Assembly: GCA_046563655.1 (NCBI GenBank)
Contig: CM102285.1
Span: 5,332,001-5,396,000, forward strand
Direction of reading: 5' to 3'
From: Yuukianura sp. NJ FZ-2021
Lineage: Eukaryota
Length of the DNA: 64,000 nt
In this document: positions 1 to 58,685 of the stretch, one piece after another
Position numbering within the stretch: position 1 is the first letter of the stretch
How the letters are laid out: every line of letters starts with the position of its first letter
Translations under genes and position numbers: made by a program
Notes under the pieces: generated by a model
Told to the model about the DNA's origin: nothing
The model's database searches: none
The model's input: the letters and a program-made list of their open reading frames with translations, nothing else

Positions 1-350
1 ACTTTCTTCCCCAGCCAGTTGGGTAGCTGGCTGGCGTATTAACGACTTGTATAAAAGATTCACTGCTCTCCGCGCTTGGCGTAGGTGAAACCGAACGACT
101 AGAAATATTCCGTGAAGGAACGGGTTGAGGGACGGTGTGCCGTCACCTCGGAAATGGTGTAAATTTTGACCTAACCGCTTTGAGGGTGAAGTCGCGACCA
201 CTCGAGAGAGGCGATGACGTAGGACAGAGGTTTTTCTTCTACACCTGTCGCATACCCCGAGGAGCGAAACACAACGAGACTACAAACGAAGCAATGAAAC
301 AAATTACCGAACCTTGGCGGTTCAACCCTGTTGCAGGATACCTGGACGGT

Positions 351-1413
351 ATGACTCTACGGATGCTCCTTGTACTTTGCGTCGGGACGACGCTTGTTGC
401 AGAGGTCGCCGGGACGATGATGTGCCCATGGGCACTGGCGACACGAATTCGACGGAGTCCGGTGAACCCACACCGGTGGACCAAGAGGAACCTCACGTGG
501 ACCCTTGGACCTACCCCATATGACATGGACCGAGAAGAAGCACTGGCGCCAGCCTGGCGTTCGTGAAGTGGCAACTTTACTCCAACTTCACCTTTACTTA
601 CGTGGAGGGGAATGCTGATATCCCCATTACCTTCGAACACGGAATTCATGATGACGCTAGTGACGGACGTGGTGGCACACTAGCCCACGCCCACTATCCA
701 GCATCAGTTATGGGCGGACAAATCCACCTAGACGCCAACGAGACTTGGTCTCTCGGAGAGGACGACGAACACGTCAATTTATTTTCGGTACTCCTACACG
801 AAACGCCTTGGCCTTGCCACACACTCGTGCCATAGGATCTGTGATGACAGCCTGGTACCAGTTCTGGCCGCACGTTACCGAAACAGGAGTCCCCGACGAA
901 GAAGCTCTGAAGGTCCTATACCCACCAGGGTTCATCGACGAAGGGCCGGATGGAGAAAATATCCGAGGCCTGAGTACACTGTGGTACGACCATGTTGGTT
1001 ATCTCAATGGGGACCACCTCCTGTTCCACGGGAAAAGTCACGTTAGAGTTACAGGAGCTGGGACACTACTTCCTACTCCAGTGCAGAATGGCGATTTCTT
1101 CGAGGACTTCCCGCCGGACCGCCGAATCAACTTCACAGTCGGCGTCACGAGTTACCTCTATGTTATGGTTGACGACCAAATCGGAGTATATTCATCAGAC
1201 GGCCACCTAATCACACCAGGACTCAAGCACCGAAGTATCTTTGGCATTACGCACCCAGTTTTGGGATACTTCCCGTCAGAACACACCCTCTGGATCAAGT
1301 TGACCACTGGATGGAGGCCGCTATACCTAGAGAAGGGCATGATACAAAATCGCCTTCGACATTGCCTTCATAATCGTGTCAAAGTTCAACGCTTTTGTCA
1401 TAGACCCTACTAA
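351..1413 (+). pseudogene. Intronless matrix metalloproteinase (M10A), frameshifted, inside an LTR element
   Basis: Joining ORFs 135-566, 563-835 and 745-1413 gives a hydrophobic signal (MLLVLCVGTTLVAEVAG), an RIRR furin-like site, RWTKRNLTW, KWQLYSNFTF..ADIPITF, DGRGGTLAHAHYP, GGQIHLDANETW, NLFSVLLHE, ALALPH and the Met-turn SVMTAWY. A possible hemopexin-like segment follows. There is a frameshift near 545-565 and a deletion inside the HExxHxxGxxH motif near 803. Confidence 0.85.
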
Positions 1414-2320
1414 CCCGGACACGCACGAGCCGCTACAAAACTTGTACAAATCCACGGCGGTCGTTAAGTTATGTTACCGTGGAGGAAACCAACTGAAATG
1501 GATAGAGAGGGATTTTGGAGTAATCCCAATCGGAGAGATTGATATTGAAACTATACGCCTACACACCGACAGTCTGCCGTGTCACGCGTCACCGACGCAA
1601 ATTCGGAACAAGTTCCTTTCAACACTTGAGCTGCCCTTGGGATTTCCACACGCTGTTCCAAATTTGGATGTTAACGCTATGAAAACTGTGGTCGTAACAA
1701 TTGTGAAACTTTGGGGTGACATCTCCGAGCAATTACACAACCTGGACACTCTGGAAATTCAGGCCCTGATTCAGAAGATGCTTAACAGCACACACGAGCA
1801 AACTGCAGACCAGTTCCGGCTGACTCATTTCTTTACGCATGTTTCGGTACTCAACGTCAAGGATACAAGGATCCGACTAAGCCTAATTTCCGTGGCCCGG
1901 CAGCTCAATCTGACAACAACCGTATTTTGTCAGGACTAAGAGACTTGGAAAACAGAGACGGAGGCAGAATTTTTGCGAGAACTACTGCAGAAAGTCCGAA
2001 CCTTGTCGCGATCGGATGGATTGGACCCAGTACAACATGCATTAATAGTTCCACACCTCGCCGCGTGGTGGCGTGATTGCCGAGTGCGGCCTGAAACCGT
2101 CACGAGGCCTGTTGTAGTACCACGCCGGGGCCCGTATGCAACGCCCATTCGCCCCACCAGTGCCCGCACGCCACCACCAAACGACGCCAGACACCCCACC
2201 ACCGCTCCACCATCCCTCATGTCACGGATCCACGCATTGGAGCAACAACATCTGGAGCTCAGCCGCCCTAGGTCCGAAAGGAGGCTTTTCGAGCTTTTGT
2301 CGGGACGACAAAAAAAATAG
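1343..2320 (+). pseudogene. Rrp6/RNase D (DEDDy)-like accessory ORF, copy 1, one premature stop at 1937-1939
   Basis: ORFs 1376-1939 and 1973-2320 are in the same frame and colinear with the ORF at 7340-8239 (QD*ETWK vs IDYDAWR). Motifs are KIAFDI, AFVIDP and LYKSTAVVKLCYRGGNQLKWIERDFGV. Confidence 0.6.
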
Positions 2321-2331
2321 GCGTTGGAGAG

Positions 2332-2548
2332 TGTTGCAGCAGTATTAATTCAAGATTTATTTTCACAACTTACTTTCACTAAGCCAAGGTCACACGTACA
2401 CTTAGTCACTTAGTCGCTAAGGGACCCCAGCACTTGTATTTAGTCACTAAGCAGGAAGTGTTAAAGCAAGGCCAGGTAATTAAAACAAAACCGCAAGGCC
2501 AACTTGATTAATGAATTAGCCCAATTAAGCCGACCACAGCCGCCGCTA
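2332..2548 (+). mobile_element. Truncated 3' LTR (family A)
   Basis: Starts TGTTGC right after GTCGGGACGA...GGAGAG (gypsy-type pre-LTR/PPT region). Contains the shared core AAAACCRCAAGGCC..TTAGCCCAATTA..CCACAGCC. Confidence 0.75.
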
Positions 2549-2824
2549 TATTGAAATTAAAATATGAAAATTTTGAGGAACATTACAGTGGATTCGCTTG
2601 AACTGAAGACGGAAAATGAGAACAGAAGAAAGACAACGGACACACAGGATGTGATAACACCCTTCTTAAAATTTAAGCTGAGACAATGTTTATTCGTTAG
2701 GGAGTGTGAGGGCCAGAAAATTCTCCCTCACCAACTTCCCTCCCCCCATCATAGATTAGGCTAAGTCACCGTACAAACCAGATTGGCAATAAATGAGACA
2801 GCCAGCATTTGCACAGCAACTTAA

Positions 2825-2920
2825 CAAGTACCAACGTTCCTCGGCTGTACTGAGTACAACCGCCGCTTCATCAAGAACTATAGCCAAATTGCTAAACCCC
2901 TGACCGAGCTCACCAAAGGT
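2825..2920 (+). mobile_element. Ty3/gypsy reverse transcriptase thumb fragment
   Basis: Translates [30 protein letters not shown], matching the gypsy FLG..YYRRFI..A.PL..L motif. Confidence 0.8.
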
Positions 2921-5687
2921 GCTTTAGGAGTAGCTAGATTGGACGGAATTATGTGACTAGCCCGGTCTAAAGTTCATTTGAAAAATCGGACACCTGCACA
3001 AAATCCCTTGATTGATCATTTCCTGAACGTCATCTAGGTCACATTAATTAGTCATTTCCTAACTATCAAACCTCCAATTTTTTAAAATGGATGAAAACCC
3101 GCCAAAACGCGTGAAAAAAAATGCCTGGGTAAACAACAACTTTCTCGCCAAAAATACATGCGTCACTAAAAATTATTCCATGCACTAAACCATAAATTAA
3201 ACCTTTTAATTCCAATTAGTCATTTCCGGTCTTACCTAACCATTACCGGTAACTGAAGGTCACAAAACAAAAAATCACTAATTTGTTCGGGAGAAATTTT
3301 GAATTTTTTTTATGTGGCAGGTCAAATTTCTCCGAATCAAGGTCATTGAAGGTCAAAAATGAGCTTGAAATTTATTAAGTTTTCTTTTTGTTAAAATTTA
3401 AGCCGGTTAATGTGTCATGAAATTGGTCTAATTGGTCTAATTATGGGTTAATTAAAAGTTCCATCGAAAAAGGACAAACAAACAGTTTTAGTTTAACCTT
3501 TGACAATTAGAAAACAATTAGAAAACTGTCATAACTTTGACAGCGTTAACTTTGGAGAACGTTTTATAGAGTCTCACTTGGCATACAAGTTTTCAAAACA
3601 TAAAACAATAGTTTTTGTTAAGGAAGGACAGTCTGACACCTCTTCCGACTCAAGTGATGAAGCCGATGGAGGGCTTACAAGACGCTATTGGCGTGCACAC
3701 ATTAAGCCCATACCCTACCTACGTCCAAGGACAGCGGGAATCCGAAAAGCATTACAAACGTAAAAATTAAATGTAACTCTGTCATAAGGTTTTATATTAT
3801 TTCTTTTATTTGTTAGTTCCTGCACATTCAGTCACACAATCATCATCATGATGCTGAGTATGGGGTGGAGGGAAGGTCACCCTATTGGAAAGCAAGAGAA
3901 TGGCTACGCTATCCTGTAAGAAATAAACAAATCAGTTTAAAAATTCATTCTTTGGTTATAATTTCCAAATTTACCGGAATTATAGTGTTGGTATTTTCTA
4001 GATCAACACGGCCGGTGGAGAGAAATAGGGAGAGTATTTGTATGGACGCGGCTTCGGAGCGCAGGAGTAACTTTTACATCAGTCACAATCTGTAATTCTT
4101 TTTTAGCACATATTCTTGTCAATATTTTTGTTGTAACTTCTGTTAATGAATCCATCAAGGTCGTTGAACAAATGATATGAAATCAATAAACATTTTGAAG
4201 TTTTATGCGTATGTACTTTTTAAAACTGTTCTTTGAAAACAATAATTTATATTTGGTCAATTCCACTTTTCTCTTCGTAAAATTCGAAGACATGTAATCC
4301 CCTGTGCAATCATAGGATCTTCCCTCATCTAAAATTTTTGAACATATGAAGAAAAAAAATATTCTTAGTATACAAGCATTTTTTCGAACGTCTAAACTCA
4401 ATTAGCGATTTCCTCATTACAAAGCATTTTACTAGAGCTTGAACTCAATTGGCGATTTCCTTATTATAAAACATTAATCGAATTAAGCTGATCCTATTTA
4501 ACTCAGAACAAAATTGAATTTTCACACATTCAAATTCTAATATGTACATCACTTCAATTTGTTGCCTCTACTATTGGAGTTGTGACCTTTAGGCTCTAAA
4601 GCGTTTTTGTACTGTTGTTGAACCAATAGATTACAATTCCATCATAGAGGATTCATCATCTGGATTCAACATTTTGGAAATTAGGACTTAAACAAGAACT
4701 CTACATTATCATTACTCAATTGTCCTTAAAAGTTATTTTAAAATTTAAGACTGTTGATTACAACGATAATACAAATATTAACTACAATCCAGTTGTTTCG
4801 CAAAAATAGCGGAAAAGCGCCGTATGGACTGAATTCGTCCCAATAATCTCACAGATTATACTTTAAAAATAATCTATGTAATAACAAATTCATTTAATAG
4901 TTTTACATGCTAAATCTCAATGCCAGAATGTTCGAGAAAAAAAATTTGTTTTATTTGTTAAATCTCCATGCCCAGGTGTTTGAAAAAATATATATTAAAT
5001 TCTGATAAGTACTACAGTACAATTGGTGTTTTTACAATCTATGGCACAGTTGTACTTATTAGAATTTGAAAAAAGAATCACCATAATTATTCTAAAAAAC
5101 CGTAACCGTTAATTCGTATACCTAATTTTATGTAAATTGGAAACTGTTACATTTACGCTTGTTCTAATACCATTCACAAGCTAACAACTACTACTACTTA
5201 CTGAAAAGTCTGAAACAGGAACATTTTTACCAAAAAGCTCATTTCTTTAGAATAAAATCTTAAGTATTTCCGATACTACAAATGTCTTAATTAGACATAA
5301 TTTATTGAAACTCGTGCAAAGTCATGTAATTGAAGGAAAGTTACAAAAAAAAGAAAACAGTGAAAGGTCAAGTGAAGTGAACACTTGGAATTTTTTTCAA
5401 CTCCATAAACGCTCTCTTCATAACAAAAAATCAACTTTTCCCGCCAAATTTAATAGTTCATGTTTAAGTGTCAGTTTTTAGGTTTTAAATGACGTTACTG
5501 CTGTTCAAGAATGGAAAAAACGTTTACAATAGATTCATTTTACTTTTTACCAAAATAAATTTTCAAAGAATGGAAAAAAGTTCACAATAGATTCATTTTA
5601 CTTTTTACCAAAATAAATTTTCCAAAAAAATAAAGCAAAAAGAAGAAAGTCATTTTTTTTTAAATTTCAGTAGTGGATGATTCGAAA

Positions 5688-6278
5688 TGTTGCATCAGTA
5701 ACTAGTAATTTTGTTGCACTTTCACTTCACAATGTCAAGGTCGCACATTCACCACTTAGTCACTAAGCACAGTTAGTCACTAAGAGGAAACAGAACCAAG
5801 GCCTATTCTATTGAAGGGAAAACCACAAGGCCAATTCTATTAGCTAATTAAGCCCAATTAGCACAACCACAGCCAGCGCCGCTAATGCGGTTTATGACCG
5901 AATTCTCTTGTAAAAACCACTCTAATTAGACACCTCCAATCTAGGCAATTTAGAATTTCAGTTAAATAGCCGGGAAATGCAGTGTAGAAAGTAAGTCAGT
6001 AAGCCAGTAAACAAAAGCTAAGCAGAGAAAGGAAGACTAGAGAAGGAAGCCGGAAGCACTAGCACTAAAAGTACTTAGACCAATAGAGAGCACAGTTCAG
6101 AAAAATCAGCAACCAGAGGTATGAGTACACACAAATGTAAACATTTATTTATTTGCACTCCACGACTAAGACGAACTCACGCCAAGATTGGGGCCTTAAG
6201 ACCCTTGACCCCTCCGGGAACATTCGCTGACCCTGTGGGCACTTCTTTATTGACATACGTTAAAATCTCAACGTAACA
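5688..6278 (+). mobile_element. Complete 5' LTR (family A)
   Basis: TGTTGC...CGTAACA ends, family A core, CCTTAAGACCCTTGACCCC block shared with the other LTRs, followed by a PBS. Confidence 0.85.
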
Positions 6279-6280
6279 AT

Positions 6281-6294
6281 TGGTGCATTTGCCG
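6281..6294 (+). promoter_or_regulatory. Primer-binding site complementary to the tRNA-Gly 3' end
   Basis: TGGTGCATTTGCCG lies 2 nt after the LTR end and matches 13/14 to TGGTGCATTGGCCG, the complement of the typical animal tRNA-Gly(GCC) 3' end. Confidence 0.75.
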
Positions 6295-6653
6295 ACATGC
6301 CCTCTACTGCTGTTTTCTCTTTCTTTGAATCAATAGTCACTATTGTTGTAAACTTTAGTTACTGTAACTATACCTTAAATATGATGAATGAATGCGTGTG
6401 TGAATAACATAACGATACAATAACATATTATAACAATAGCAGATTAGAACAATACCGACTGCGTCGAGTGAATTCCTACGACACCACATGCTACGAAGTT
6501 AACAAAGACTTGGAACTCTCCCCCCTCTGGTGAGCAAGAGGTGAAGGGCATCGAACAGGTACTGTGGAGAAGGTGACCCTTGTAGAGGCGAAAGTCCTTC
6601 ACTGTTACCACATACGCTCTGCCGAAGGCCAAAGCTCACCTCATAGGGCAATG

Positions 6654-6760
6654 ATGATGATGTGCCCATGGGCGCTGGCGACACAAACTCGACGGACTCC
6701 GGTGAACCCTCACCGGTGGACCAAGAGGAACCTCACCTGGACCCTTGGACATACATCGTA
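6654..6760 (+). pseudogene. Fragment of a second MMP copy (N-terminal part)
   Basis: MMCPWALATQTRRTPVNPHRWTKRNLTWTLG, about 90% nucleotide identity to 414-520. Confidence 0.8.
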
Positions 6761-7339
6761 CAACGAGCGAGAACGAGCTCCTTAGTCAACCTTGCCGAGC
6801 GGATCGAGACGGAGTACGAGACGATCAACGAACTCCACCAGACCACCCAACTACCGGAAGCCCCACCGAGATCCTATTATGATTACCCACCACCAGAAAC
6901 AAGACCGGTTTCGTTTGATGTTGAGCCTAATACGGGAACCAGCACCAATTCCGACCCAGAATATGACTACAAAGAGCGCGCTCGACTCGATTGACAAACC
7001 CGATGACGAACCAGCGACAAATAACCGATACAAACTTGTTTTAGTTTTGACCTTCTCAAATACACAGTAAACCTCTTCAGCAAATTGGACGCTGGCATCG
7101 CATCACAACTTCGCTACTCGTAAACACATATCAAGCACGTCACCGACGGACAACGACTGGCTTGCCCTGAACGACTAGGAGTCCTCAACATTAATGAAAG
7201 CAAGGTGTACGACTCCCGTTGGATGCCAGACTGGCCCATACCGACATGCACCCCGGACACCTTGACAACGAAACGAGAAGTCGCAGACCACGCGCCGAAG
7301 CCATCGGAATGTTTCCCGTAGTCTTCTCGTGAACGTGGA

Positions 7340-8239
7340 GTGAATGCTTTCATCATCGATCCCCTGGATACCGACACCCACGAACCGGTGAGAGCCCTAT
7401 TCAAGTCACCACACGTCATGAAGATCTGTTACGGTGGAAAGATCCAGCAGCAGTGGATCGAACGCGACTTCGGAATTATCCCACGCAGCGTCTCGGACAT
7501 CAAACCGATTCGCATACACGTTGCTGATTTACCAGACCACGCTACGCCGTCCGACATCCGGCGATTTTTCGAGTCCGACGTAGACTTCATGTTCGGTTTC
7601 CTTCGCAACACTCAAAATCAAGACCGCGAACTCATGTTGGATGCCACCAAGACGGTCGCCTTACTCTGGAGGGACATCGACCGTTATTTACAAGACGGTC
7701 ATGCTTCTGGAGGAAGAGACATTCAGATGCTCCTGCAACAGATGCTCATCAGCACACACGAGCAGACAGTAGAGCCGTTCCGCCTCAAGCTCTTCTTTTG
7801 GGACACTCCACCAGTTGACTTTGGGGAGGCACGGATCCGCGCCAGCATTGTCTATGTGACATTGTGCCGCGCCATGGACCTACCAACCAGCCTGTTTCAG
7901 ATAGATTACGACGCGTGGAGAAACGGTTCGGACTATGCATTCATCAGTGGACTACAGCAGAAAATTTCCATGTTCCCGAAACCTGACGTGATGACCGAGG
8001 CTCGGCAACTCATTCCCCCGTTGTTCATCTGGTTCGGGACCGACTTCGGGATAGGCACGCGCCCAGCCGATACACACCCCACCGTACCCACCGCTCACAG
8101 ACCCAGACGCATGACACAATACTCCGCTACAAGTCGACAACCCCTCGCGCTTCGTGACCTACCGCCGCCTGCCGTTCCTATCCCCGATTTAGTACGACAA
8201 GTCCAGGATCTGCAGACAAGGATTCAGGAACTCGAATGA
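7340..8239 (+). CDS. Rrp6/RNase D-like accessory ORF, copy 2 (299 open codons, 5' part disrupted)
   Basis: AFIIDPL..LFKSPHVMKICYGGKIQQQWIERDFGI..SVSDI aligns by eye to Rrp6 DFIIDTL..DPAIVKVFHGADSDIEWLQKDFGL..NMFDT. It has a Pro-rich linker and a coiled-coil C-terminus, and ends just before the PPT/3' LTR. Confidence 0.6.
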   Translation: MNAFIIDPLDTDTHEPVRALFKSPHVMKICYGGKIQQQWIERDFGIIPRSVSDIKPIRIHVADLPDHATPSDIRRFFESDVDFMFGFLRNTQNQDRELMLDATKTVALLWRDIDRYLQDGHASGGRDIQMLLQQMLISTHEQTVEPFRLKLFFWDTPPVDFGEARIRASIVYVTLCRAMDLPTSLFQIDYDAWRNGSDYAFISGLQQKISMFPKPDVMTEARQLIPPLFIWFGTDFGIGTRPADTHPTVPTAHRPRRMTQYSATSRQPLALRDLPPPAVPIPDLVRQVQDLQTRIQELE

Positions 8240-8326
8240 CAGCGCCCTAGACAAGAATAAGTCATCACATCCGCAACTACCATTCATTGTATTGTCGGGA
8301 CGAAAAATAGATTAGGTCGTGGACAG

Positions 8327-9979
8327 TGTTGCACATGCACTTTGTTAAGTCAGCCTAAGTCAATTCACTTTCACTTTCACAATGTTAAGGTTAAAAACTG
8401 CACTTGGCCAGTGTCACTTAGTTGCCATCCCCGGAAACAATTCATGCATTAGAGACAAAAAGTAAAAACCGTCAGCATAACGTAGCTGGCTGTCCAAGGT
8501 TTTAGCGTCATATTGGCGCAATGCAAGTATCCGTGGAGGACGCCGTTTCAAAATCTTAAATATGATGCAATTCCGGAGGCGTCAAATTGAGGTTTGGAAC
8601 ATACTCCAATTTGACGCATGCAAAAGATAGAAAAAAAACTCTTCTCCGGAGTTTCGAACCAACAACCTTCACTTCTCTCTTATTGCTGATCTATCACACT
8701 ACAAACTAAGCTACGAATGATTTATTGAAAAACTAGTCGAAAGTTGTACTACTTATTCCATGCATTCGGAACTTAAAATTCTTACGACTAAAATCAAGAA
8801 AAAAACTTATAACCTGACATCAATTATGTGATTAATTGGTTAAGTTACGGTAAGTATGGTCACCTTTGTACACATACAGACAAAGTGACGTAATTATCAG
8901 CTGTCACCGGCATAGTTAGGTGGATTCAGCATCTCTACATGTGAGCGAGCAGTTTAAATGCTCTAAATGACACGGAACCATGTATGTCTTATTTGATTAG
9001 TTATAAAAATTAGCATCCAATTCGATTGTTAATTGGTCATGTGGGATACGAAACTATAAGTTTATCCGAAGTTTTTAGACGATGTTTGTCCCGCAACAAA
9101 AGAACGTGTAGCAATGACATTGGTTGTTTAGTGTTCTAATAATTGCGTCTGGAAGCTGTCGGGACGGACGCATCATATTGACTGAAGGAAGCTTCACTGC
9201 AATTTTACGCACTTTCCATGCAATACAAATCTTGCAATATTTGAATGATTGGAAACAAGCGTCAGAATCATGCAATTATAATTGCGCCTCTTTTGCAGCG
9301 AATCGAAGGCGTAAATTTGTGCGCCTCATTTCTGTCCTCACAACAACATGCATGCAACTAACTCAGTTTTTGCAGAAATATAACGCCAGGCTTACCCTAC
9401 TCATAATGATGCCAGCGTGAGCGCATCATTTTTGAATCAAAAATGTGTAATCGTCATTGTAATTCCCAAAACTGACGCAATGCTGACGGTTCATACCCAA
9501 AAATTGTTTCCGGGGATGTACTTATCGTTAGTCACTAACAGGAACAAAAGCAAGGCCAAGACGATTGAGATGGAAACCACAAGGCCAAACTTATTAATTA
9601 ATTTAGCACAATTAGCTCAACCACAGCCTCTGCCGGTAATGCGGTTTTAGGACAGAACCTACCCGGAAACCACACAAATTAACAACCCCCAATTAGGAAT
9701 TATGTTAAATACCCGGTAGTCACTGCTTAGAAGTAAGAAAGGTCAGAAGTCTAAAGAAGGCAAGGAACCAGCCCTACTAAGTACCCTAACAAAGCACAGT
9801 TACAGCAGCAGAAGGTATGGTCACACTCATTTATATTTACTCATTTATTTCAAAACCTTACACAGACAAAGGACGGACTCACGCCAGGAAGGGGTCCTTA
9901 AGACCCTTGACCCCTTGGGCAAGATGACTGTTGACCCCAAGGGCCCTTCCAACGGCATTACGCGAATTTCGACGTAACA
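8327..9979 (+). mobile_element. 3' LTR (family A) split by a DNA transposon
   Basis: TGTTGC at 8327 follows GTCGGGACGA..GGACAG. The LTR resumes at 9519 with the family core and ends CGTAACA at 9979. Confidence 0.8.
8426..9518. mobile_element. Non-autonomous DNA transposon (~1.1 kb) inserted in the LTR
   Basis: 17-bp TIR CATCCCCGGAAACAATT plus subterminal inverted AACCGTCAGCA. No clean TSD (TGC vs TAC). Confidence 0.8.
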
Positions 9980-12566
9980 CACATGAGGAGTCAAAACCAC
10001 AAGCACAAAATCAAGAAATTCTAAAAGTGCTATTTTGACAAAGAGTCTTACTAAAACCGCTAACACCAACTCCCTAAATTCATACCTTGTAAAATTATGT
10101 TTTGAGAAAAACTGCAGACAGCTGAAAATAAATTGGTAGAAAGTTTTGTAAAGAAAATTTATTAGAACTAGTTTTTTTCGTAAAATGATCAAAGCCACGG
10201 ACGAAAAATTAGTGTCATAGTATGTATAGATGTTTTAAAAGTCGTTAAGCCATAGCCATTTTTTTTAAAGATTCCATTTGAAACAATCAACGGATGCTGA
10301 TCGAAAGGGGAGGAGGATCGTTGGGAAGTAGGGAAGTAGGTAGTGGGAACCTAACCTGCACAAAATCTTTTAATTGGTCATTTCCGGTCTCTAAATTAAC
10401 TGACCATTTCTGGTGTACAACAAACGTCATAGGTCTAGGAGCAATAAGGCACTAACTAGTCATTTACGGTAGACCAAGGCACTTCAAGAGGTATATAAAC
10501 AGCAGAGGCTGGGATCTAAGGGTGTTGGATTTTCCCTATTCTCATCTTGTACGTTACCCTTTAACAATTACGGAAACCATAAAAGTATGATAACTGACCA
10601 GTTGCTGTATATCTGTAAGACATAGCGTCATCCTCTTTGGGATTTAAACTACAGCCCGATCAATTAATACACCGTTACTAAGAATTCCAATTCTCACGGC
10701 CCGTCCTTTCACAGGATATTTCATTGTCGGTCCCATCCATCATATTCATGTGATTCATGTTCGGCCGATGCTCGGATATCCTTATCCAACTTGCGTTGTC
10801 TTATGGTCGCTCATATTGGAGAGACTAACTGTCCTCTTGACTTCGGTCATCTTGGATTTTCTTCAGACATTTCTGACACGTCTCAAATAGTCATTAATAT
10901 GTGTCGTGGTTCTCCCACAGGAAGGAGAATTACTGCAAAAGAAACAAAACCCCTTCACAGGATTCAAGGGTTTTTCCCAAAATTCCACCAGTTCGGCTAA
11001 ATTCAATATTTGAATGTTAGCCGTCACATTTAAATGTTCCAAGTGAATTAAAAACAAAGTTCACAAGAGCATTTTCTGTGTTACCACTCAACACCCGGAA
11101 TTGCGGTGGTATAATTATCTTGTGGTTTCATTACTTAAAGGATTAAGTGGACATCTCGTTTCATGGTAGTGCCCAGAACGGTAGAAACCTTCCCTAGGCC
11201 TCCGGTTTTCTTAACAAAAAAAAAACGCGTACGTTAATTCGACTTGTAGACAAAAAGTATGCCTATGAGCGCATGCTTAATTTCATTAGCTACTTTTACA
11301 CGCACAAAAAAAAACTAGTGGGAGCTAGGGTTGATTATTTTAAGCCTATAAGTCCAGACACTCATCCAGTGGTCGGGAAATTTTCGTTACGTAGTTGTAA
11401 ATTTGTAAATTCTAGCAACCTCAGACAGCGAGGCATGAATAATGGGTAGTCGTACATTTCCTATTACGCCCGGTGTGAGTCGCCAGGTTCCCTGGGCACA
11501 TGGCACTCACGGAGACCTGGTAAAGAAATACAATACCCCCCAAATTATAAAAGAAATCACTTAGCATTTTTGCTTCATCTAACTATTGCAGGATGGTTAG
11601 GTTAACCTAACCTAACCTTTTAAGTCACTTATTAGTGGGAACGCCGTTCTTTACTCATGACTGGGCCGCGTTTGCTGGGCTATTTATGCAGAAGGCGGGA
11701 AATCCAATCACACTGGAAATGAATGCTCTTGTTAATCTTGTAAAGTTTGAAGTGCGGCGCCATAGGTGCGCTTTTTAGACTGAGCGGGTCTTGTTCGCGG
11801 GAAACCGACCATGGGCGTCGGTAGACGACAGACGACCAAGGTTATGCGCTTTAATACATAAAAAGAGTCTTGAGGAATTTCTAAGAATTAATGAAGTGGA
11901 GGCGGCGACTGTCAACGTTCATCGTTGGATAGAGGAGGAGCGAACCATCGCACTATCTGATAATGCAGCCGAAGGGGAGGAAATGGTGCCGGTATCATAC
12001 TCTCAAGTCTCTCTGAGACGGAGCCTGATTTAACACTTTAAAACAAATTCAATAAACATAATTCGAGTTCCTACAGGGAAATTATTAAAAACAAAAAAAA
12101 AAGGATTTTGCTGCCAACTGTATAATGCTAACCTGTTGCTTATCGTCTATATTTTTTCAAGACGTCTGGGATAATGACTGGTAAGCTACTTTTTAAATTT
12201 AATTCTGTGACTAATTTTTTTCCTCTTAGGAAACCACTATGAGGAACAGGTAGAACGTCTTCTGGGTGCAATGCTGGTAATGATCAACTGGAACGGTCCG
12301 GTTACTATGGAAGGAGTAACTGGTCTAACCTCACATACTACCGGGAACATCCGCAACACTGCGCAAAAGCGGTAACCTTTATCGCAGTTATTGGAAAACG
12401 GAATTGTGTGATGGGCTGTCATTCGACGAGCTTTTTAAATCACAAATTGACAACAGCCACACTTCCCATCTTACAATTTATGATGAGGCGGCAATGTTCA
12501 TTAAAAATTTTTTGGGTGAATTACTGCAGGAAACTTATGAAGCAAATAAATAAAAACTTAGTCCAT

Positions 12567-12960
12567 TGTAGCACCAGCACTTAGTTCACTCAATTGTTGC
12601 ACTTGAACTGCTCAACTTTCACTTAGTTACTAAGAGGGACTTACAACAACGCCAATTTCGTTCGGAGTGAAAACCACAAGGCCAATTGGCCACAAGGCCA
12701 AGTGATAGAAAATTATTAATTAATTTTTATCCAATTAGCAGAACCACAGCCAACGCCGGTAATCGGTGTAGGGACCAAAAACTGTTATCCTCTACCTGTA
12801 ATTAACAAGCACTTAGCAACCTTAATTGGCTAATTAAGCACCTAGCATAAATACTGTTCAGTCACTGCTTAGAAAGAAGAGAGGACAGAAGTCAGTAAGT
12901 CAGTAAGAGGACCAGCAATCAATACGTACCACTAACAGCTAAGTACCCCGGTACTTCACA
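12567..12960 (+). mobile_element. Truncated LTR (family A)
   Basis: TGTAGC start; AAAACCACAAGGCC, CCAATTAGC, CCACAGCC..GCCGGTAAT and GTCACTGCTTAGAA are shared with the LTR half at 9519-9979. Confidence 0.75.
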
Positions 12961-12982
12961 ACAAATAAACCTCGATTTAAAG

Positions 12983-14206
12983 ATGACACTGCGCTTAGAC
13001 AACAACGAGCCAATTGTTTACGTCAGAGCAAGTGAAATTCCAAAGAGCTCATTTTGCAAATTTTGGAGCAAGCTGGGCGGAGATTCCTAGTCGCCGGCTA
13101 TAGAAAACTTACGCGTGACAACCTACATCACTTTGCGCTTGGCACTGGGACTTCGGGGATTCCATAAAACAGCAACATGGAGCTGGAGCATCAGTTTATA
13201 TTTTCTGAAAATCAAGTATCATTATGGACCCTAGACGCCCGTCACCCATGGCAACGGTTCATGTCGTACGAAGATATTCGGAATACAATAATCAACATTT
13301 TCAAATACTATGACATTCTGAAAGAGCCCGAATTTGAATTGTTCAAGTGGACTAGTTACATGGTTATGGACAATGCCAGCTTTCCATTTCCGGCCTCGGT
13401 AGTATTTTAAGCAGTGCACAGTGGCTAGTTTTCATCAGTCTCAACTTGTGCTTCAAGATGGAAACACCTACTTCTTCTCTTCCTGTCCTCCCAATGCACC
13501 GTACCATTACCTCCAACAACCTTGTGAATAGTGAAAGTGAAAAATCATTTCCTAGAAAAAAATTTTTACGTCTAAATTCAAAGCTTTCAACTCTGCTGTG
13601 GTGGACGTCATCGATCAAGGCCGAACTTTTGGTTTCTGGTTTTCAGGGCCAAAACGTGCGCTTCCTTTTCCTTATGAAACTTGTGCCGCACTGTGGAACC
13701 TAATGATCACAACTTCAAAAAACCCAAAGCTTCTCGAGTCGAGAATGAATATGAGGATCATGGACATGGCGGCAATTGCGCCGAATTTGGTGGAATGTGA
13801 AAACGCCCTCGTCGTGTGCCCCAGACCCTACATCATGTTCAAGGCCATGAAAAAATTTTGATTTCCGGAAAAAAGTGGTGGAGTCTTTGACGTCATCCGA
13901 AACTATCGACTATTTACTGGAGAAAACGACGAATACGAGGAGTTTAGAGTTTTGGAGGAGGAGACGACTTTGGATGCAGTGATAGATAATTTCAAATTGT
14001 ACTTTGTGGTTTCAGAGAACATTAAAAATGTGCTCGGTAGCAAATTGGAAACTTTACAAAAAGTGTCTATTGTGATTATTATTCACTACGACCAAATCCA
14101 AGTTGATCAGGTTCACAGGCTGTACGAGAAATTCAAGGAAAAGTTGGTGTTCATCGGTCATCCCATACACAGGGGGACAAACGCAAAATTGGTCATTTCT
14201 AGTTGA
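12983..14206 (+). pseudogene. Decayed ~400-codon intronless ORF of unknown function
   Basis: ATG at 12983, then successive protein-like pieces (13177-13410, 13598-13861, 13952-14206). The last two are in frame across one stop. Confidence 0.45.
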
Positions 14207-15563
14207 TAAGTGTTATCCTGTTAGCACAAGCAAATTGCAATGAAATGTACTCTAGAATATTTTTTTTTACTTTTGTAGCCTTGTAAATTGATAAACTAAA
14301 ATTGAGCCTTGTAAATTTTGTCTTTTACTTGGTTTTGTTTTAGGATAATCCATTTTATATTCTAGTGTAGTTATTCTTTTCTTTTCAAACTTTCTGTACA
14401 GCCACTCACAAAAAAAAATAAAACCCAGCGTGGGCAAAACTGTGTTTGGCTTCAAGTTTATTTTTAACTTCTTTATAAAAGTTGGCGTTTGAATTTTTTC
14501 TTTGGATGGAGTCGCACACCAGAATATGTGCCAAAGAAACTTGCATTTGCGCCTATCTGTATGTAGCTTTATTGTCGTTTGTATTTTTTGGATTAATTTG
14601 GTTTTTCACGATTCCTGGATTCTACAGTGGCTGTGGCAATGTACGTTCCAATCACAGTTGATCCAGATCATCTTCATCAGCTAACACCCTCGCAAACTAA
14701 TCAAGCACACTGCATTAAACCTAGTTAGGTCATACGGTTAGGCTAAGCACTTGGTTATGCGTTGAGCAATTGGCAAGCAATAAATCAGAACATCTTAGCA
14801 CTCGAACTTAACAAGTTATGGTGCCGAAAGATGTTCCTAGGGAAATCTAGAGTCAATCGACCAGTGTTTAAAAATCGACTGACAGTGATGCGAGAACGGG
14901 TATGTCCAAAATCCACCAAAACAAACATATTTGTTTAAATTCTGAAACCACCCGAGTATCAAAAAGAAAATTAGGCATAACTTCGGATTTCTCCGAGGGA
15001 TTACATACATCAAGAACGAGTTCTGTCAGTTCCACACACGACGTAGATATCAAAAGTGCATCACATTCGGATTAAGATCCCCTAAGCTGATTCTGTCAAT
15101 GATCATAATCTCTTAGTCGAGAACCTTCCAAGTGACTCTCACCATAAGCTGACTACACTACTGTTTCCAGTAGATATTGATCAATTGATCGAAACACGAT
15201 TAGACAACCTTATCCTTGCCTTACGCGAATGGCAGATGCCCCACGAGTCACAATAAGAATTCCGGCAATGACGTCATTGATCGACCTTATGCTTAAACCA
15301 GCCCACGACCGGAACTACGAAAGCCAAACTGTTTTCTCTAGCTTAAAATCAGTTTTCAGCGAATCTTGACACGTCGGCAGACCACGACTCAATTTGACGG
15401 AATTAGCCAAGTCAAGGATGTGATGGTGTCCAAATTAATACCCATCATCTCACATTCAACTAACCCCGTCATAATCATCTGGAATGTTAGCCTTACGATG
15501 GGAATCAGGTTTTTACTCTACAAACAGCTGCTAGCCTATCTATGTATGTGTAACAAACGATAG

Positions 15564-15790
15564 TGTACCTAGCTAATAATGCGCACTATAATCTACTTAA
15601 GCTACCTGCACGCACGCACGGAAAAAAGACGCTAATTAACTAACGTAAATTAGAGTTCCTGTTTCGACAAGTTTATGCACCACAATTAACGGAAGAATTC
15701 GCTTAGCAACACCATCACCGCCAGAAATGATTTGCTAATTAAAAGCACACCATTGGTTTAATATATAATCCCCGTTACACCGGCGTTATA
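15564..15790 (+). mobile_element. LTR-like repeat fragment (family B)
   Basis: Homologous to 19530-19750: GCACGC..GCACGGA, GCTTAGCAACACCA and TATATAATCCC..GTT.CACCGGCG. Confidence 0.55.
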
Positions 15791-16115
15791 TATATATGTT
15801 TATTGGGGGGAGCAGTCACCTATATTTAGGTGACTGACTCACGCTGAGCATTCACTTATACGAAATATTTCAACATCAACCCCTTTAGAAACAGCGTTAT
15901 TTTTTGTCCTTTGTGACCAAACACTCATTATGGTAATCCAATTGCTATCATTATACGGAGGTCGTCCGTATTCTGATAAACAAATCAGATTGGATGAGTA
16001 TTTTTTGTCTATGGACTGGTTCAAGGAGTAGTAATTTGTAACCACCACAGACTGCGAAGCTCTTACCTGCTGCTCCAAAGGATTACAGACCTCTGACTCA
16101 AGGCCAGCTTGGTAC

Positions 16116-16350
16116 TGTAACACAGCAGGCAGTTCTTGCAGAAGCGGTCGCCCCAACACACACTCCTTTATCTTGGGGTGTCCACAGAGCAGCCCCAGGA
16201 AAAGAGAGAAGTCCAGCACTTGTCTCCCTGCTTCGGGACAGGGAGAACCCACGGCCTCGACTTCTTTTTTCCTTCCCAGGGGCTGGTTGCGAACTCACGT
16301 CGGCCAGTGGAAAAGCATTGACGGCTTAACCACTGAGCCAACTCGCCCCT
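16116..16350 (-). mobile_element. tRNA-derived SINE-like or LTR-like segment
   Basis: The minus strand reads GGGGCGAGTTGGCTCAGTGGTTAAG (A box) ... GTGAGTTCGCAACC (B box-like); the segment ends TGTTACA. Confidence 0.4.
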
Positions 16351-16843
16351 GCACCGGGGTTAGAACTTAAGTATATTCTGCGCCGATTATCAGAAAACAG
16401 TGAAAAGACACGGCAAATCAGCATGGGCTTTTAGCATACTGACAAAATACCGTCCTATATTGCTACTCCGCCAGTTTGAAAAACTCGCAATAATTTGCCT
16501 ACAACAGCTTTGTTAATAGAAGAAGAACACTTCTTTGTTGTGATTTAAACAAAAACTAAACCTTTTTTTTATAGTTTGTACGTATTATCCAAGGAAAGGC
16601 AAAGGCATCTAAGTTAAGTAACTATTTTTTTTATAAATTTCGAATTTTATTTTAATTTTTAGTCCTTGATGAATTTTTTTTTCTGAATCAAACGACGCTG
16701 GGAGTTTTGGATCAGTATATAACTTTTGTAATTACTTTTTTTTTAAGTCCATTTCCTCCAGCACACAAAAAACTGAGTTACAAAAAAAGAAAGTTGTTAC
16801 ACAGTATTTTTCAAAAAAACCATAAAATGGCTTTTCTTTTCAG

Positions 16844-17160
16844 TTTTCCGCGGAACAGAAGGTTGTTGACAATATAGTATGGCTATATAAATCAGTTGCA
16901 TATCCAGATTTTGCACGTGCTGACGGACGGTTTGTTACATTTAATCGTTTCGACACGGACTGGACGATGGCTGTAGGCTGTAGTTAACAAGTTTATCAAG
17001 TATGGATTTTTTGTTAAACATTCTTATCCAAAAATTATGTTACAATGTCATCATTGTGGGGTGGAATGATTCCATGTCCTACCAAACTACAAAGCTCGGT
17101 TCCGGCACAACGGGAGACTTTGCCCCCTCGTCACAATAGATTTTTGGACTCCACCAAATT
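16844..17160 (+). pseudogene. BIR (IAP repeat)-like domain, disrupted
   Basis: Removing a 7-bp tandem duplication (GGCTGTA, ~16969-16982) gives AYPDFARADGRFVTF..KFIKYGFF..LQCHHCGVE*FHVLPNYKARFRHNGRLCPLV, i.e. C-x2-C-x16-H-x4-C. Preceded by a pyrimidine-rich CAG acceptor. Confidence 0.6.
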
Positions 17161-17334
17161 AAATTTCTAATAGGAAATGTGGGAGAGACTGCAAAATATG
17201 AAACCAAATCCTTCCCAATGGAGCAGACGTATTGATTATTCTATACTTTCATGTTGCACTCTGTACAATGCATGCGGAATTGTTTAATTTAACTTTAATA
17301 TAACTTTACTTCCACCTTTTCCTCTGCCACGTTG

Positions 17335-17620
17335 TGGACTTCCCCAGGCAGTTGGGTAGCTGGTTGTTGTACTAGGACTTGTCTAGAGGACTCACTCGCT
17401 ATCCGCGTTCGCCGTGGATGAAACCGAAGACCGATAGGTAAATTTTCCGTGAAGGAACGGTTTCAAGGACGGTGCCCATCTCCTTGGCAACGGTGTAACA
17501 ATAAACCGGGCTGCAGTACAAGAAAGTCCCAGACCCTGCAGCATGCGATCGAAGTCACCTTGAGGGCGGAGTCGCGACCACTCAAGAGAGGTGATAACGC
17601 GGGATAAGAGACTTAGGACT
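17335..17620 (-). repeat. Internal block homologous to 1-235; probable antisense ORF relic
   Basis: Shared CAGTTGGGTAGCTGG, TTCCGTGAAGGAACGG and AGTCGCGACCACTC.AGAGAGG. Minus-strand translations are SRVITSLEWSRLRPQ vs SYVIASLEWSRLHPQ. Confidence 0.65.
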
Positions 17621-17756
17621 GAGGAAGCACCCAAACCCATAAAGCAATCCCACCAACGCTGCCACGCCCATGAGCAACTGGTGAGCGCTAGCCATTCCGC
17701 CTCCGAATACCCCATAACGTTCCACCGACGGCAACTGGGTTTTCGCGAGAAACGCA

Positions 17757-18322
17757 TGTTACACCCACATTTAGAGTACTTAGAGCACTAAGACACGAGG
17801 CACTTAGTCACCAAGCACTTAGATCCCAAGCAGCAAGTGTCACTGCAAGGAAATGTTAATTAAGGCAAAACCACAAGGCCAAATGTATTAATTAATTAGC
17901 CCAATTAACCTAACCACAGCCTCTGCCGGTAATGCGGTTTGAGCCTAGAATTTTCTAGTTAACCACAGCCCTTAATTGAGCAATTAGGAGTAATTAACAT
18001 TTTAGTATAAATGCGGAAGAGGAATTGTTAGTTGGTACCTCCTAGCTGTCACCCCTTGAAGCGCAGGGTGTGCGCGGGGGAGGAGAGGTCACGATGGAGA
18101 AAGGTGAACTGCACAATAAAAAGAAGAAATAAAAATTATAGTTTCACAAGTCAAAACGGCTTAGACTGCCACCCAGGTAACCCTTACATTTAAACAAGAG
18201 AGGAACTCAAAACCGGAAGGGGAGTCCTTAAGACTCTTGATTCTTGCCGTGACTACAACGGGACTCATGCCAAGGACCCATTCTTACGGGTAATTACGAA
18301 TGACAATAAATCAGACGTAACA
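17757..18322 (+). mobile_element. Solo LTR (family A)
   Basis: Perfect TGTTAC...GTAACA ends, family core, TATAAA at ~18007 and AATAAA signals. Flanks CGCA/CGCT are a possible 4-bp TSD with one mismatch. Confidence 0.85.
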
Positions 18323-18544
18323 CGCTCAAGACAAATTTCACCGGGCGATGGCAGAGAAGATAAAAATCCAAATAAAAATACAAGGTCAGGTTAGGTTAGG
18401 CTAACCTAACCCTCCTATACCGATTTGCCTCCAATCTATTCTGTTTCCACAAGAAGGGTAATGGACCAAACAGCTTCGAGAAACCCGGCCCGGGAAAGCT
18501 TATTACCACCGTATATTTTTTGCGCGGCAACAGGGTGAAACTCC

Positions 18545-20000
18545 ATTCTTCTTTGATAGATACTGATACCGCAGATTGCTTTATCCGAGTTAAGATGACA
18601 CATCACGGCGAAAATAATAAAATTGCTTTGTAGCAGCAAATATAAAAGACATCCCGGTGATGGTTACTACACGACGTTAGAGGTTTGTAAATCGCGACTA
18701 CTTTAGGAACATGTTCAATTTAACGTGTTAAAAGAAGTCGAGGTATGGACGAACCAAATATTTTCAACCTTGAACTTGACAAAGCCTTGAGGCTAGGTAT
18801 TAACACGATCCAGCGTGCGGCAAAGGTACCAGCGGAAACTCCTGATCCGTTTTCCTATAGTGCGACGACCGTTGGTGAGACCTTACTCGCGCCTTTTTCA
18901 ACAACAATGGTACATTTGTTCCCGTCTTCCCGGCGCATTCCATCAAGGGAACGTTGGCTTTTGAACCAAACAACCCTACACTTTGCTAAGCTTGGGATCT
19001 TTCCAAATGTTGCCGATATTCCAGAGGGAGATTTCGAACCATCAATAGACAAACCACCCATGTAAATTGTATATGGAAGTTAACATTGGAATCATCTCTA
19101 CGGTAACTGTGAGAGAAACAACCTCTGATAGCGGCATCCGTAGACAACGCAGTGCCACTACAATGCAACGCAATAACAAGGTAAATAACTACCCAGACTT
19201 AAGAACTGAGTTGCCGAAGCGTCTTAGGCGCTTCATCTTCAATTATACAGATGTTTTCGCATGGGATCTCGAGCATCTGAGAGAAGCAGAGGACGTTGCA
19301 TTTAGAATTGACACTGGGGACTGACTTCCAATTAGTTGGCCCCCATACAAGGAAATGCCAACTGAGAAGAAAATCATCGAAGACGATGTAAATAAGCTAA
19401 AAGGTGTCTACTAATTAAGTAAAGATTTTTTTTCCACCACTCATTTCTATTTTTACACGAAACGTTTTACGGTTCATGAAACTGTAACAAGTCAAAAGGG
19501 TCATTTAAGGTCAACTAGCTTAATAATATGTAAAGGAAAGTTGCACCCGCACGCGTGCACGGACAGGCCGCGGTGATGGAAGAAGACAATAATTAACCGC
19601 AGTTAATTCCCGTCTTCTATTTCGACCAGCTCGTGCACCGTAATTAAATTAAAAACAGCTTAGCAACACCAGCACCATCGTAATTAAATTAAGATGATTA
19701 ATTAAGGGCACCCAATTAGCTTAGTATATAATCCCCGTTCCACCGGCGCCACGGGCTAAGTCTTTTCTGGCGGTGGAAATTGGAAAAACACTCTTCACCT
19801 ACTAATCCAGCAACGATTAAATTCGGACATTATTTGCGCTGAGCAAGAAAAAAGGTTCTGAACACAAATATTACACCATTTTATTATTAGAACCTTGGCG
19901 CTAACACATCTTATTTCATAGCAAATAAAAAATCTCTTTACTTAGTAGACACCCTTTAGTAGAACTCGGGATTATTAAGAATAGCAAATCGCCATGGCCG
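18545..20000 (+). mobile_element. Ty3/gypsy pol remnant (protease and start of RT)
   Basis: LIDTDTADCFI (degenerate aspartyl protease), then YTDVFAWD..FRIDTGD*LPISWPPYK..EKKIIEDDVNKL, which resumes after the insertion as VELGIIKNSKSPW. Confidence 0.8.
19400..19956. mobile_element. Tc1/mariner-type non-autonomous element with TA TSD, containing a family B fragment at 19530-19750
   Basis: TIR AARGGTGTCTACTAA with TA on both sides. Excision restores the pol frame KL-VELGII. Confidence 0.8.
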
Positions 20001-30792: not shown

Positions 30793-33354
30793 ATGAGACC
30801 ACGTCCAGGTCCGAGGACGTACCTAATTACGAAAGCCACTGCTAGTATATTTGTTTTCTGCGCATGTGTCGGGTTTTGGTCGACGAATGCCGCAGCAGAG
30901 AACGTTCGGAATTGTGATTACAAGACAGCAACGTCAGGAAAGGAGGATGACTATAGCGAATATGAAGTAATTTGTACTACTATCTGTGTAACCTTAACCT
31001 TACGCTGGAATTTGACAAACTGACGAACTTATAAGTGCTTGATATATTAACACTCGGGTAATTTTGATTTTCAGAAAACCGTATCGGTGTGTTCTCACGA
31101 ATCTCCATTCTGCTTTGCCTATTGGACGGAATCAAATGTAACTGGAGAAGTCATTTTTCTTCAGCAAGGTACAAACCATTCTGACTGAATACAGTACTTT
31201 ACTTGGCTTAGTACTTATTGCAGCAGTAGCATGTGTCTGGACTCATGTATCGAATGCATTTTGTGAATCGCTAAGCTTAAGCTTAATGATTATTAACTTT
31301 TTTTAGGATGTTGGGGTGCTTCACCGAAAACGCCATGTGAGTCAGAGTCTTGCATCACTACTGTTTACAAGGGCTCTGCTAGGCAACCACACAAGTTTTG
31401 CTGCTGTTCCAGCGATAATTGCAACAATAACGTGACAGTGGTTGAGGTTGACCTGCCGCCTGCTGTAACATGGGAAGTGGAGGATCAAGAGGAAAGACCA
31501 AGTTCCTTTGGTTGGATTTTAACTGTTGCCATCGTGGGAGCTTCGATTGCAATAATTCTTTTCTTATCTACACTAACGTTGCTTTCATATGTTCGGAACA
31601 AGAAACAGAAGCTGAGTGAGAAGTTAGAGAACATCGAGGCTGGTGAAAAGCTTATGGAAACTGAACCCGTCACTGATGAAAATTGGGAAGTTCCTGATCA
31701 AGTTGTCTTGGGACAAGAACTCGGTACGTTTGTATGCAATGAGGAGTGTGATACAAAAATGTAACCCGAATGACTACCATAAACCGTACATGTTTAATTA
31801 ATTTTGCTTTATTCGCCATTTTTCCAGCTCGTGGAAAGTTTGGCACCGTGTATTCTGGAATCACTGGTGGATGCAAAGTGGCTCTGAAAGTATTTACATC
31901 TGACCAACGTGAATTTTACGTCAATGAACGGTTCATTTACCACATGCTGGGCGACACTTCGGGAAAAAATATTTTAAGATATCATGGTTAGTGACTTAAA
32001 ATAATACTGTAAGGTTATTGTTCATGGACTGAAGGTCTAACGTTAACGCAAATCTCTTCTCGTGAAACTTAAGTGTTATCGATAATTCTTAGGGTGGAAG
32101 GAATTCTCAACTTTGAGCTCGACTAACTTGATTCTGGTTCTGGAAAAAATCGTGCCTGGGAATCTGCGGGATTTCTTGCAGTCCACGAGTCTCAGTCTGT
32201 GCCATGCCCTCAAATTGATGAAAGGGATAGCAAATGGTCTTTCATTTTTGCACGGAGAGAATAAGAATGGTTTAGTGGTTGCTCATCGGTAAGTTTGGCA
32301 ATCGCAATCGAACGCTATTGTTAATTTTTCCACGAATATTCTTATAGAATAACGTTTGTGTTATTTATCAGGGATTTGACTTCAAAGAACATATTGGTTG
32401 ATGGAAACTGTACTGCCTACATCTCAGACTTTGGACTTTCACTTCAAACTTGTGGATCGAAGTACTATTTCGCTGGAAAGGAGCGACAGGCGGAGTTCAA
32501 CAGCTTAGCAGAAGCCGGGTACAGCTAAACTTTTGCTTACTTATACTAAGTTAAGGCGAAGTTATAATGTCTTTGTATTTATTCCTACACACAGAACACT
32601 GCGATATATGGCTCCTGAGCTGCTCGAGGGTGCTGTCAATTTGAAAGACTGTGAGAACGCATTGAAACAAGTGGACATTTACGCTGCTGCTGTGTTACTT
32701 TGGGAAATAGGACATGTGTGCTCGGATATTCGACTTGGGGAGGACGTTTCGTATGCCTTGCCGTACGAAGTTGAAATAGGTATAGACGATCAGTTCTGAC
32801 TTATTCCAAATATTTTATTATAATTTACAATTTTCGTTTGTATGTTTTATTCTTTGAAATCAGGAAAAGATATAACAATGGAGACGCTGACACGCTTTGT
32901 CGTCACTCGCCGTGATCGTCCATCCTTTAGCCAATGGCGTGATACTGCCGTATCACGTGGAATTCGGGATACTCTGAACGAATCGTGGGATCCCGAACCA
33001 GATGCTCGTCTAACTGCCCTATGTATCGTTGAGCGACTCAATGATATCAGCCAACTCACTTCCAACAAGTCCGACTCCAACTCCACTACACCGCTGGAGA
33101 CTGTAACAAGTTCACCCTGGACCGGGAGAAACAGTTGCCTGGAGCGCAACCTCTTGGATCGATCTGAAGACAAGTCTACTGAATACTTACTCACTTCAGA
33201 GAAGCACAGGAATCCATTCTATTGTAACAACTCTACAGAAGGCGAAAGTATGGTTACAATGAACACAGATTTGTCGAATGGATCTGGACTTACGCCTACG
33301 GTGGCGGTAGGGCCTACGCCAATCCCCTTCCTCCAGAACATCCGTCGAGTTTAG
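30793..33354 (+). CDS. wit: BMP type II receptor Ser/Thr kinase (wishful thinking/BMPR2)
   Basis: Signal peptide, Cys-rich ectodomain (QGCW, FCCCSSDNCN), TM segment, kinase motifs HRDLTSKNILV, SDFG and GTLRYMAPELLEGAVNLKDCENALKQVDIY, and the tail motif GRNSCLERN. Confidence 0.9.

Positions 33355-42803: not shown

Positions 42804-58685
<15,882 letters not shown>

Follow-up and report, generated by a model that had tools for sequence, protein, structure and literature searches.

Errantiviruses, the env-carrying Ty3/gypsy retroelements with an F-type ENV, combine LTRs, a primer-binding site (PBS), gag, a PR-RT-RH-IN pol, and env, and they occur in multiple young copies (Chary & Hayashi, eLife 2026, PMC13524379). 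In the portion of that account covered here, the movement of env-bearing retroelements from soma to germ line is described as unexplained outside Drosophila, and the covered parts of its main text and 7 supplements hold no mention of metalloproteinase, matrixin, or hemopexin. Granuloviruses and entomopoxviruses are known to carry matrix metalloproteinases (MMPs) (PMC3877225, PMC4411684).

The window, that is, the whole 64,000-nucleotide stretch of Yuukianura sp. NJ FZ-2021 DNA analysed here, contains the decayed remains of an MMP gene. In the clade of env-bearing Ty3/gypsy elements to which it belongs, this gene is the first ORF. The elements of this clade likewise have LTRs, a PBS, gag, pol, env, and multiple young copies. 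Our preferred reading, with a probability of roughly 0.55, is that the product is a membrane-anchored zinc protease that loosens the extracellular matrix surrounding cells in which the element is expressed, and that this may give particles or infected cells access to new cells, those of the germ line included. The spread of errantiviruses in other animals without a reported MMP (PMC13524379, as far as covered) counts against it.

The window copy and its surroundings

The MMP gene and the adjoining parts of its element are laid out as follows.

C3 ~5,330,777-5,331,380, just upstream of the window: 5' LTR and PBS of the window copy
1..293 (+): 3' part of the ~1-kb leader, 92-98% identical to the leaders of full-length copies
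351 (+): ATG start codon of the MMP, with an alternative in-frame ATG at 294
351..413 (+): predicted signal peptide (hydrophobic stretch; cleavage site judged by eye)
414..455 (+): 14-aa mini-propeptide, with the lone Cys of MMCPW at 423-425 and the furin-type site RIRR at 444-455
456..927 (+): MMP (M10A) catalytic domain (PF00413), frameshifted at ~548 and ~804
797-802, 820-822, and 844-846 (+): HE, the third His, and the Met-turn of the catalytic domain, respectively
952..1349 (+): hemopexin-like domain, N-terminal part only, with 94% aa identity to a sister copy up to residue 337
1364..2320 (+): remnant of an exonuclease-like (PF01612-like) 3' cargo ORF from a related subfamily, interrupted by a stop at 1937-1939
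2321..2548 (+): polypurine tract and 5' part of the 3' LTR, which starts with TGTTGCA at ~2334 and is 73% identical to the C7 LTR

The signal stretch, the MMCPW Cys, RIRR, the catalytic domain, and the lack of both PRCGxPD and introns, all reported in the initial annotation, are seen in the sequence. The Cys follows the predicted signal cleavage site by 4 residues and precedes the last residue of the furin site by 10, and the middle piece of the gene matches PF00413 with an E value of 2.8e-20. A single break, in the zinc motif, had also been described. It is present at ~804, inside the motif and just after HE, but it is accompanied by a second frameshift at ~548; relative to a natural uninterrupted copy, 7 nt and 4 nt are missing at these two places, respectively.

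Similarity to MMPs stops at 1349, and positions 1350-1413 are an out-of-frame read-through over the exonuclease-like ORF of a related element; thus, the last 21 codons of the window ORF are not MMP sequence. The two ORFs are joined at ~1349-1363, and the exonuclease-like remnant has 69% aa identity to a copy on C9 and 45% to one on C7. Missing from the window copy are the remainder of the hemopexin-like domain and the membrane anchor, along with gag, pol, and env. Among public contigs, one from a second study (run X4, aligned to window positions 1-620 with 3 differences and no gap) has the ~548 break in common with the window but not the ~804 break, where it has 7 more bases. None of the public contigs from 4 runs bridges the join at 1349, and those of X2 and X3 continue into the normal 3' half. 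The join and the ~804 break may therefore be private to the assembled haplotype, or they may be assembly errors.

The rest of the window holds further pieces of the family, as well as host genes.

5714..8405 (+): second, internally deleted element copy, from repeat and sequence comparison
5714 onward (+): 5' part of this copy, with its LTR, a PBS at 6281-6294, the leader, and a 102-bp MMP 5' fragment at 6653-6754
~6780-8405 (+): 3' part of this copy, with an env tail at ~6780-6970, an exonuclease-like ORF at ~7064-8239, and the start of an LTR
1-19400: decayed pieces, namely LTRs at ~5714, 9528, 12670, and 17800, env at 15190-15539, leader at 17339-17599, and pol at 2826-2920 and 18742-19399
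22090-22515 (-): acyl-CoA-synthetase-like host gene, by eye
28652-29604 (+): EFHC-like host gene, by eye
31297-33354 (+): BMP type II receptor-like host gene, by eye
~42800-56400 (-): host ATM kinase gene

Positions 1-19400 thus form a cluster of decayed pieces from the MMP element family, possibly a graveyard resembling a piRNA cluster. A repeat at 10602-12065, which is also found at a C9 locus (71-88%), is separate from the MMP element.

An MMP gene carried by a family of env-bearing elements

The host's own genome (98.7 Mb, 22 contigs) was searched for further copies. A DNA search returned 9 matches, among them five further MMP copies at 91-94%; a protein search returned 29, made up of 27 rows from 23 element copies plus 2 host exons; and a family search added one element fragment and brought the intron-bearing host MMP genes to 7 in all. 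Element MMP copies number 24, all of them intronless, and they fall into four subfamilies (A to D) with 30-35% aa identity to one another and pol genes that are 55-64% identical. Intact copies, which the initial annotation proposed to look for, do exist: half of the copies (12/24) have uninterrupted ORFs, and the zinc motif HExxHxxGxxH is exact in subfamilies B, C, and D. Subfamily A keeps the Glu and all three His, with Ala in place of Gly.

Four complete elements among the DNA-search copies consist of an LTR, a PBS, a ~1-kb leader, MMP, gag, pol, env, an exonuclease-like ORF, and an LTR (12.8-14 kb); their LTR pairs are 100, 99.8, 99.5, and 98.2% identical, and they are flanked by 4-bp target duplications. 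In subfamilies B, C, and D, the MMP directly precedes gag (91-182 nt) in LTR-bounded gag-pol-env elements of ~17-20 kb. Across the family, the order is LTR-MMP-gag-pol-env-cargo-LTR, lengths are 12.8-20 kb, and LTR pairs are 96-100% identical. Overall, LTRs, a PBS (a PBS-like motif was located in sequence L010), target-site duplication, gag, pol in RT-RH-IN order, and an F-type env with a TM are all found, the Baculo_F match of env being weak to passing (E values of 6e-5 and 3e-8). The exonuclease-like cargo ORF is present in all four subfamilies, and a dUTPase is present in B, C, and D.

The MMP is strictly linked with the env of its own clade. Among 29 env matches, 12 are near full length at identities of at least 48%, and every one of these has an MMP 5-9 kb upstream (12/12). 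Close but fragmentary env sequences at three loci have no MMP in place, and none of the six fetched elements with a distant env (22-28% identity) has one upstream.

Several structural details differ among the subfamilies. The uninterrupted subfamily A protein is 523 aa long from the second ATG, and its ~85-aa tail overlaps gag by 155 nt. In subfamilies A and D (L031, L052), acceptor-like sequence (branch-point, pyrimidine tract, and AG-like) is found 20-25 nt upstream of the gag ATG, a hint that splicing could remove the MMP from the message used for gag; no common motif emerged when 6 leaders were scanned for splice donors. Among subfamily A copies (L024-L029), LTR similarity is only 66-80%, against 91-94% for the MMP genes, suggesting LTR turnover or recombination. 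A subfamily C element at C8:6,225,949-6,245,887 (~20 kb; 1,090-bp LTRs, 99.9% identical) lies inside a tandem repeat. Its pol and env are separated by three unannotated ORFs (265-293 aa), and env is followed by an unassigned ORF, a dUTPase, and an exonuclease-like ORF. The subfamily D leader contains an extra ORF upstream of the MMP (L082:1261-1866, +) that has no Pfam match and includes a stretch that we take to resemble a macrodomain. Cargo ORFs past env start with a stretch that looks F-box-like by eye (L117:921-1655, +; L119:5178-5900, -), also with no Pfam match.

Pairwise Nei-Gojobori estimates of dN/dS for the MMP are 0.074-0.141 in 10/10 pairs (dS of 0.08 to 1.96), compared with 0.02-0.08 for pol and 0.03-0.07 for env. 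The gag-overlapping tail of subfamily A is under relaxed constraint (0.68-0.85). The three pieces of the window MMP give 0.06-0.35, which indicates that most of their divergence is older than the decay. The pol genes of MMP-bearing elements form one clade relative to five other pol genes (SH-aLRT of 100). The MMP tree joins A and B (91) and the pol tree joins C and D (98), which is the identical unrooted split, AB|CD. At full length, the element MMPs form one group relative to 6 cellular MMPs (99); with the catalytic domain alone against 34 rows, their monophyly receives only 83/63, and we count this against the preferred reading. In a quick-method tree of 116 rows (116 of the 256 excised domains, together with host rows), P0057 fell inside the element group, a placement that was not repeated in the 39-row or full-length trees. 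With its position between leader and gag, its LTR-bounded young copies, its intact catalytic and structural-zinc residues, its strong purifying selection, and its co-descent with pol, the intronless MMP with minimal prodomain is borne out as a genuine retroelement gene, and it is nearly certain that it is a selected one.

Anatomy of the encoded protease

All subfamilies have the same layout: a signal peptide, a propeptide of 14-27 aa, an MMP catalytic domain, a hemopexin-like domain, and a C-terminal hydrophobic anchor. Cellular MMPs have an ~80-aa prodomain, and such a prodomain, with its PRCGxPD, is absent from the element proteins, which have no PF01471 match. Over the N-terminal 58 columns of 11 aligned copies from the 4 subfamilies, the start, one Cys, and the first Arg of the furin site are nearly the sole invariants. 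RxxR is present in all subfamilies, and the Cys precedes the cleavage point by 10-14 residues, at the place occupied in cellular MMPs by PRCGxPD. Because its position matches that of PRCGxPD and it is invariant while the rest of the propeptide varies, the lone Cys is likely a shrunken, minimal cysteine switch rather than the trace of a lost one. The initial annotation, which took the switch to be absent, was probably wrong on this point. Some cellular or unnamed MMPs (P0021, P0064, P0115) have short propeptides with a Cys as well, so the mini-propeptide alone is not specific to the elements. One of these, P0064, is a 400-aa MMP with a signal, a short Cys-bearing propeptide, hemopexin repeats, and a hydrophobic tail, and it lies outside the element MMP group. 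The 14-27-aa propeptides offer a natural test of the cysteine switch without its helical scaffold.

The catalytic domains of subfamilies A to D match PF00413 with 127-163 bits against a cut-off of 24. HExGHxxxLxH, the Met-turn, and the H/D/H/H ligands of the second zinc are invariant or nearly so, and the second-zinc ligands and Met-turn align residue by residue with those of MMP-12 and MMP-1. Subfamily A lacks two residues of the D-x-x-P-F-D loop, and this loss, together with its Ala, counts against the preferred reading. PF00045 is matched in B, C, and D with E values of 2e-5 to 1.5e-3, above the cut-off only in D, and not at all in A, where the predicted model has four beta-blade repeats in the hemopexin-like domain.

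This alignment-based model of the subfamily A protein has a mean pLDDT of 56 (70-80 in both domains and <50 in the termini and propeptide); a single-sequence fold with a pLDDT of 35 was set aside. Foldseek aligns the model with full-length MMP-13 and MMP-1 over 376 columns (E value of 4e-20), and the sister-copy model matches MMP-8 with a Z score of 20.0 and an rmsd of 2.2 A over 155 residues, the alignment rows covering the catalytic domain only.

The signal peptide of the sister copy has a mean hydropathy of 2.45 over 12 residues, and a 19-residue C-terminal stretch reaches 1.6-2.8 in 5/5 proteins tested. In subfamily A, a hydrophobic helix is followed by a cytoplasmic tail of ~85 aa; in B, C, and D, the protein stops with the hydrophobic segment, which by eye may be a GPI signal. 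The element MMPs are thus predicted from sequence to be membrane anchored and not secreted. The protein had been annotated as secreted, but in uninterrupted copies the reading frame runs through a complete hemopexin-like domain to a hydrophobic C-terminal segment; the anchorless, secreted look of the window copy is a product of its truncation at the 1349 join.

Origin, proposed role, and known systems

The element MMPs have 24-41% aa identity to the 7 host MMP genes (~31-38% to host Mmp2), and blastn against 6 of the host loci found no match. The initial annotation proposed a tree with host Mmp1, host Mmp2, and viral MMPs. Such trees reject host Mmp1 (p = 0.001) and host Mmp2 alone (p = 0.035) as the sister, and they retain both a granulovirus-like group joined to the element MMPs (AU p = 0.47) and a sister relationship to the whole Mmp2 group (p = 0.38); grouping with four divergent host MMPs gives p = 0.07. 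The "GV" and "ascovirus" labels on viral loci in these trees are guesses. Host Mmp1 and Mmp2 are placed with arthropod orthologs, and the host is "arthropod-like." The host MMP genes, at least 7 and intron bearing, lie at C1:903k, C2:549k and 555k, C4:3.50M and 4.13M, C7:3.91M, and C8:13.22M, and four of them form a divergent host-specific group (97/92). Searches for relatives in other organisms gave only generic MMPs that matched the catalytic domain (3 matches, 73 matches, the best 150 of 4318, 15 viral loci, and 2 metagenome loci), a result that masked or unannotated elements would escape. Of the two metagenome loci with an MMP match, the one read is bacterial.

Under the preferred reading, the protein would enter the ER by its signal peptide, with the lone Cys of the 14-27-aa propeptide bound to the catalytic zinc as a minimal switch until furin cleaves RxxR in the Golgi. 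The active enzyme would then be held on the cell surface or the budding particle by the C-terminal helix (A) or by the terminal hydrophobic, possibly GPI-type, segment (B, C, and D), and its hemopexin-like domain would bind the matrix substrate. In this way, a surface-held, furin-activated protease could loosen the matrix and let enveloped particles or carrier cells spread. The basal lamina is a known barrier to insect viruses (PMC11865517, as far as covered) and encloses insect ovarioles (PMC4725958, likewise). The help in crossing basement membrane that the initial annotation suggested is plausible. More tentatively, and with less than even confidence, we propose that a long-lived clade of invertebrate endogenous retroviruses brings its own invasion protease, an enzyme like an MT-MMP that is exposed on particles or producer cells. 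It would be kept latent by a cysteine switch smaller than any other of its kind, 14-27 residues long and lacking the helical prodomain, and would cut basement membrane and open a route from soma to germ line. The retention of a membrane-type MMP through 36-45% pol divergence makes the matrix-barrier idea directly testable.

The leading alternative, which we nonetheless consider improbable, is a surface sheddase: by cutting receptors, proteoglycans, or immune proteins of the host, or by trimming Env, the enzyme would aid particle release or block superinfection in a receptor-destroying role. The predicted anchor in all subfamilies and the strict linkage of the MMP with the env of its clade suit such a role, as does the cleavage of the glypican Dlp by Drosophila Mmp2 in the ovary (PMC4725958 and PMC4178971, in part). 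Env, however, carries a furin-type site of its own, RRKR. The hemopexin-like domain, which classically serves as an exosite for matrix binding, is retained in full and under selection, and this too counts against a sheddase.

It is quite unlikely that the gene is kept for host benefit or for altered germ-line niche signalling (e.g., stem-cell proliferation) that would indirectly raise element transmission. MMPs do tune niche signalling in the Drosophila ovary (PMC4725958, in part), but the copies lie in young, scattered insertions, half of them decayed after insertion, and selection on the MMP is like that on pol, an indication that it acts while the element replicates.

An enzyme resembling the granulovirus MMPs, secreted, constitutively active, and devoid of a cysteine switch, is less probable again and seems to us very doubtful. 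Although PRCGxPD is lacking, the granulovirus-like grouping has an AU p of 0.47, and a GPI anchor at the ends of B, C, and D could be shed, the propeptide Cys is invariant, every subfamily has a hydrophobic segment at the C terminus (followed in A by a cytoplasmic tail), and the anchorless window copy is explained by the 1349 join. The alternative named in the initial annotation, a one-off processed pseudogene of a host MMP hitchhiking in the element, fits an intronless and broken copy but is refuted by the low identity to the 7 host genes, the lack of a blastn match to 6 host loci, the rejected groupings with host Mmp1 and host Mmp2 alone, a dN/dS of about 0.1, and the four deep subfamilies.

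Among known systems, the product resembles the membrane-type MMPs (vertebrate MT1/MT3-MMP, GPI-linked MMP-17/25, and insect Mmp2; MEROPS M10A), with which it shares the signal peptide, furin site, catalytic and hemopexin domains, and predicted C-terminal anchor. It differs from them in lacking the ~80-aa three-helix prodomain and PRCGxPD, in being intronless, and in being encoded by a mobile element. The C-terminal half of MMP-16 has an Atlas feature match of 0.81 to the element MMP, which serves as a lead only.

The MMPs of large insect DNA viruses (granulovirus mp-nase, ascovirus, entomopoxvirus, nudivirus, and iridovirus) are likewise intronless viral cargo, mostly without a classical prodomain. 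Granulovirus and ascovirus MMPs are the top BFVD structural matches of the predicted element model (E value of 2e-17; 16-19% identity). The initial annotation stated that described baculoviral MMPs lack the cysteine-switch prodomain. Of the 7 viral MMP ORFs inspected, 5 have no Cys-bearing propeptide between signal and catalytic domain, one has PRCGVPD, and one is unclear. The element MMP differs in its reverse-transcribing carrier and in keeping both a Cys-bearing mini-propeptide and a predicted anchor. Retroelements thus converge on cargo known from large insect DNA viruses.

No MMP in an LTR element was found in the searched literature, a scope that leaves aside subscription papers and Repbase-type annotations. 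The LTR elements of bdelloid rotifers, with a DEDDy exonuclease ORF3, also carry enzymatic cargo that includes an exonuclease-like ORF (PMC5408684). As far as that source was covered, their cargo includes no metalloprotease and takes the place of env after pol, whereas the elements reported here carry cargo in addition to env, some of it ahead of gag. Compared with errantiviruses as described in the covered parts of PMC13524379, the elements reported here add an MMP ORF upstream of gag together with further cargo, reaching lengths of 12.8 to ~20 kb.
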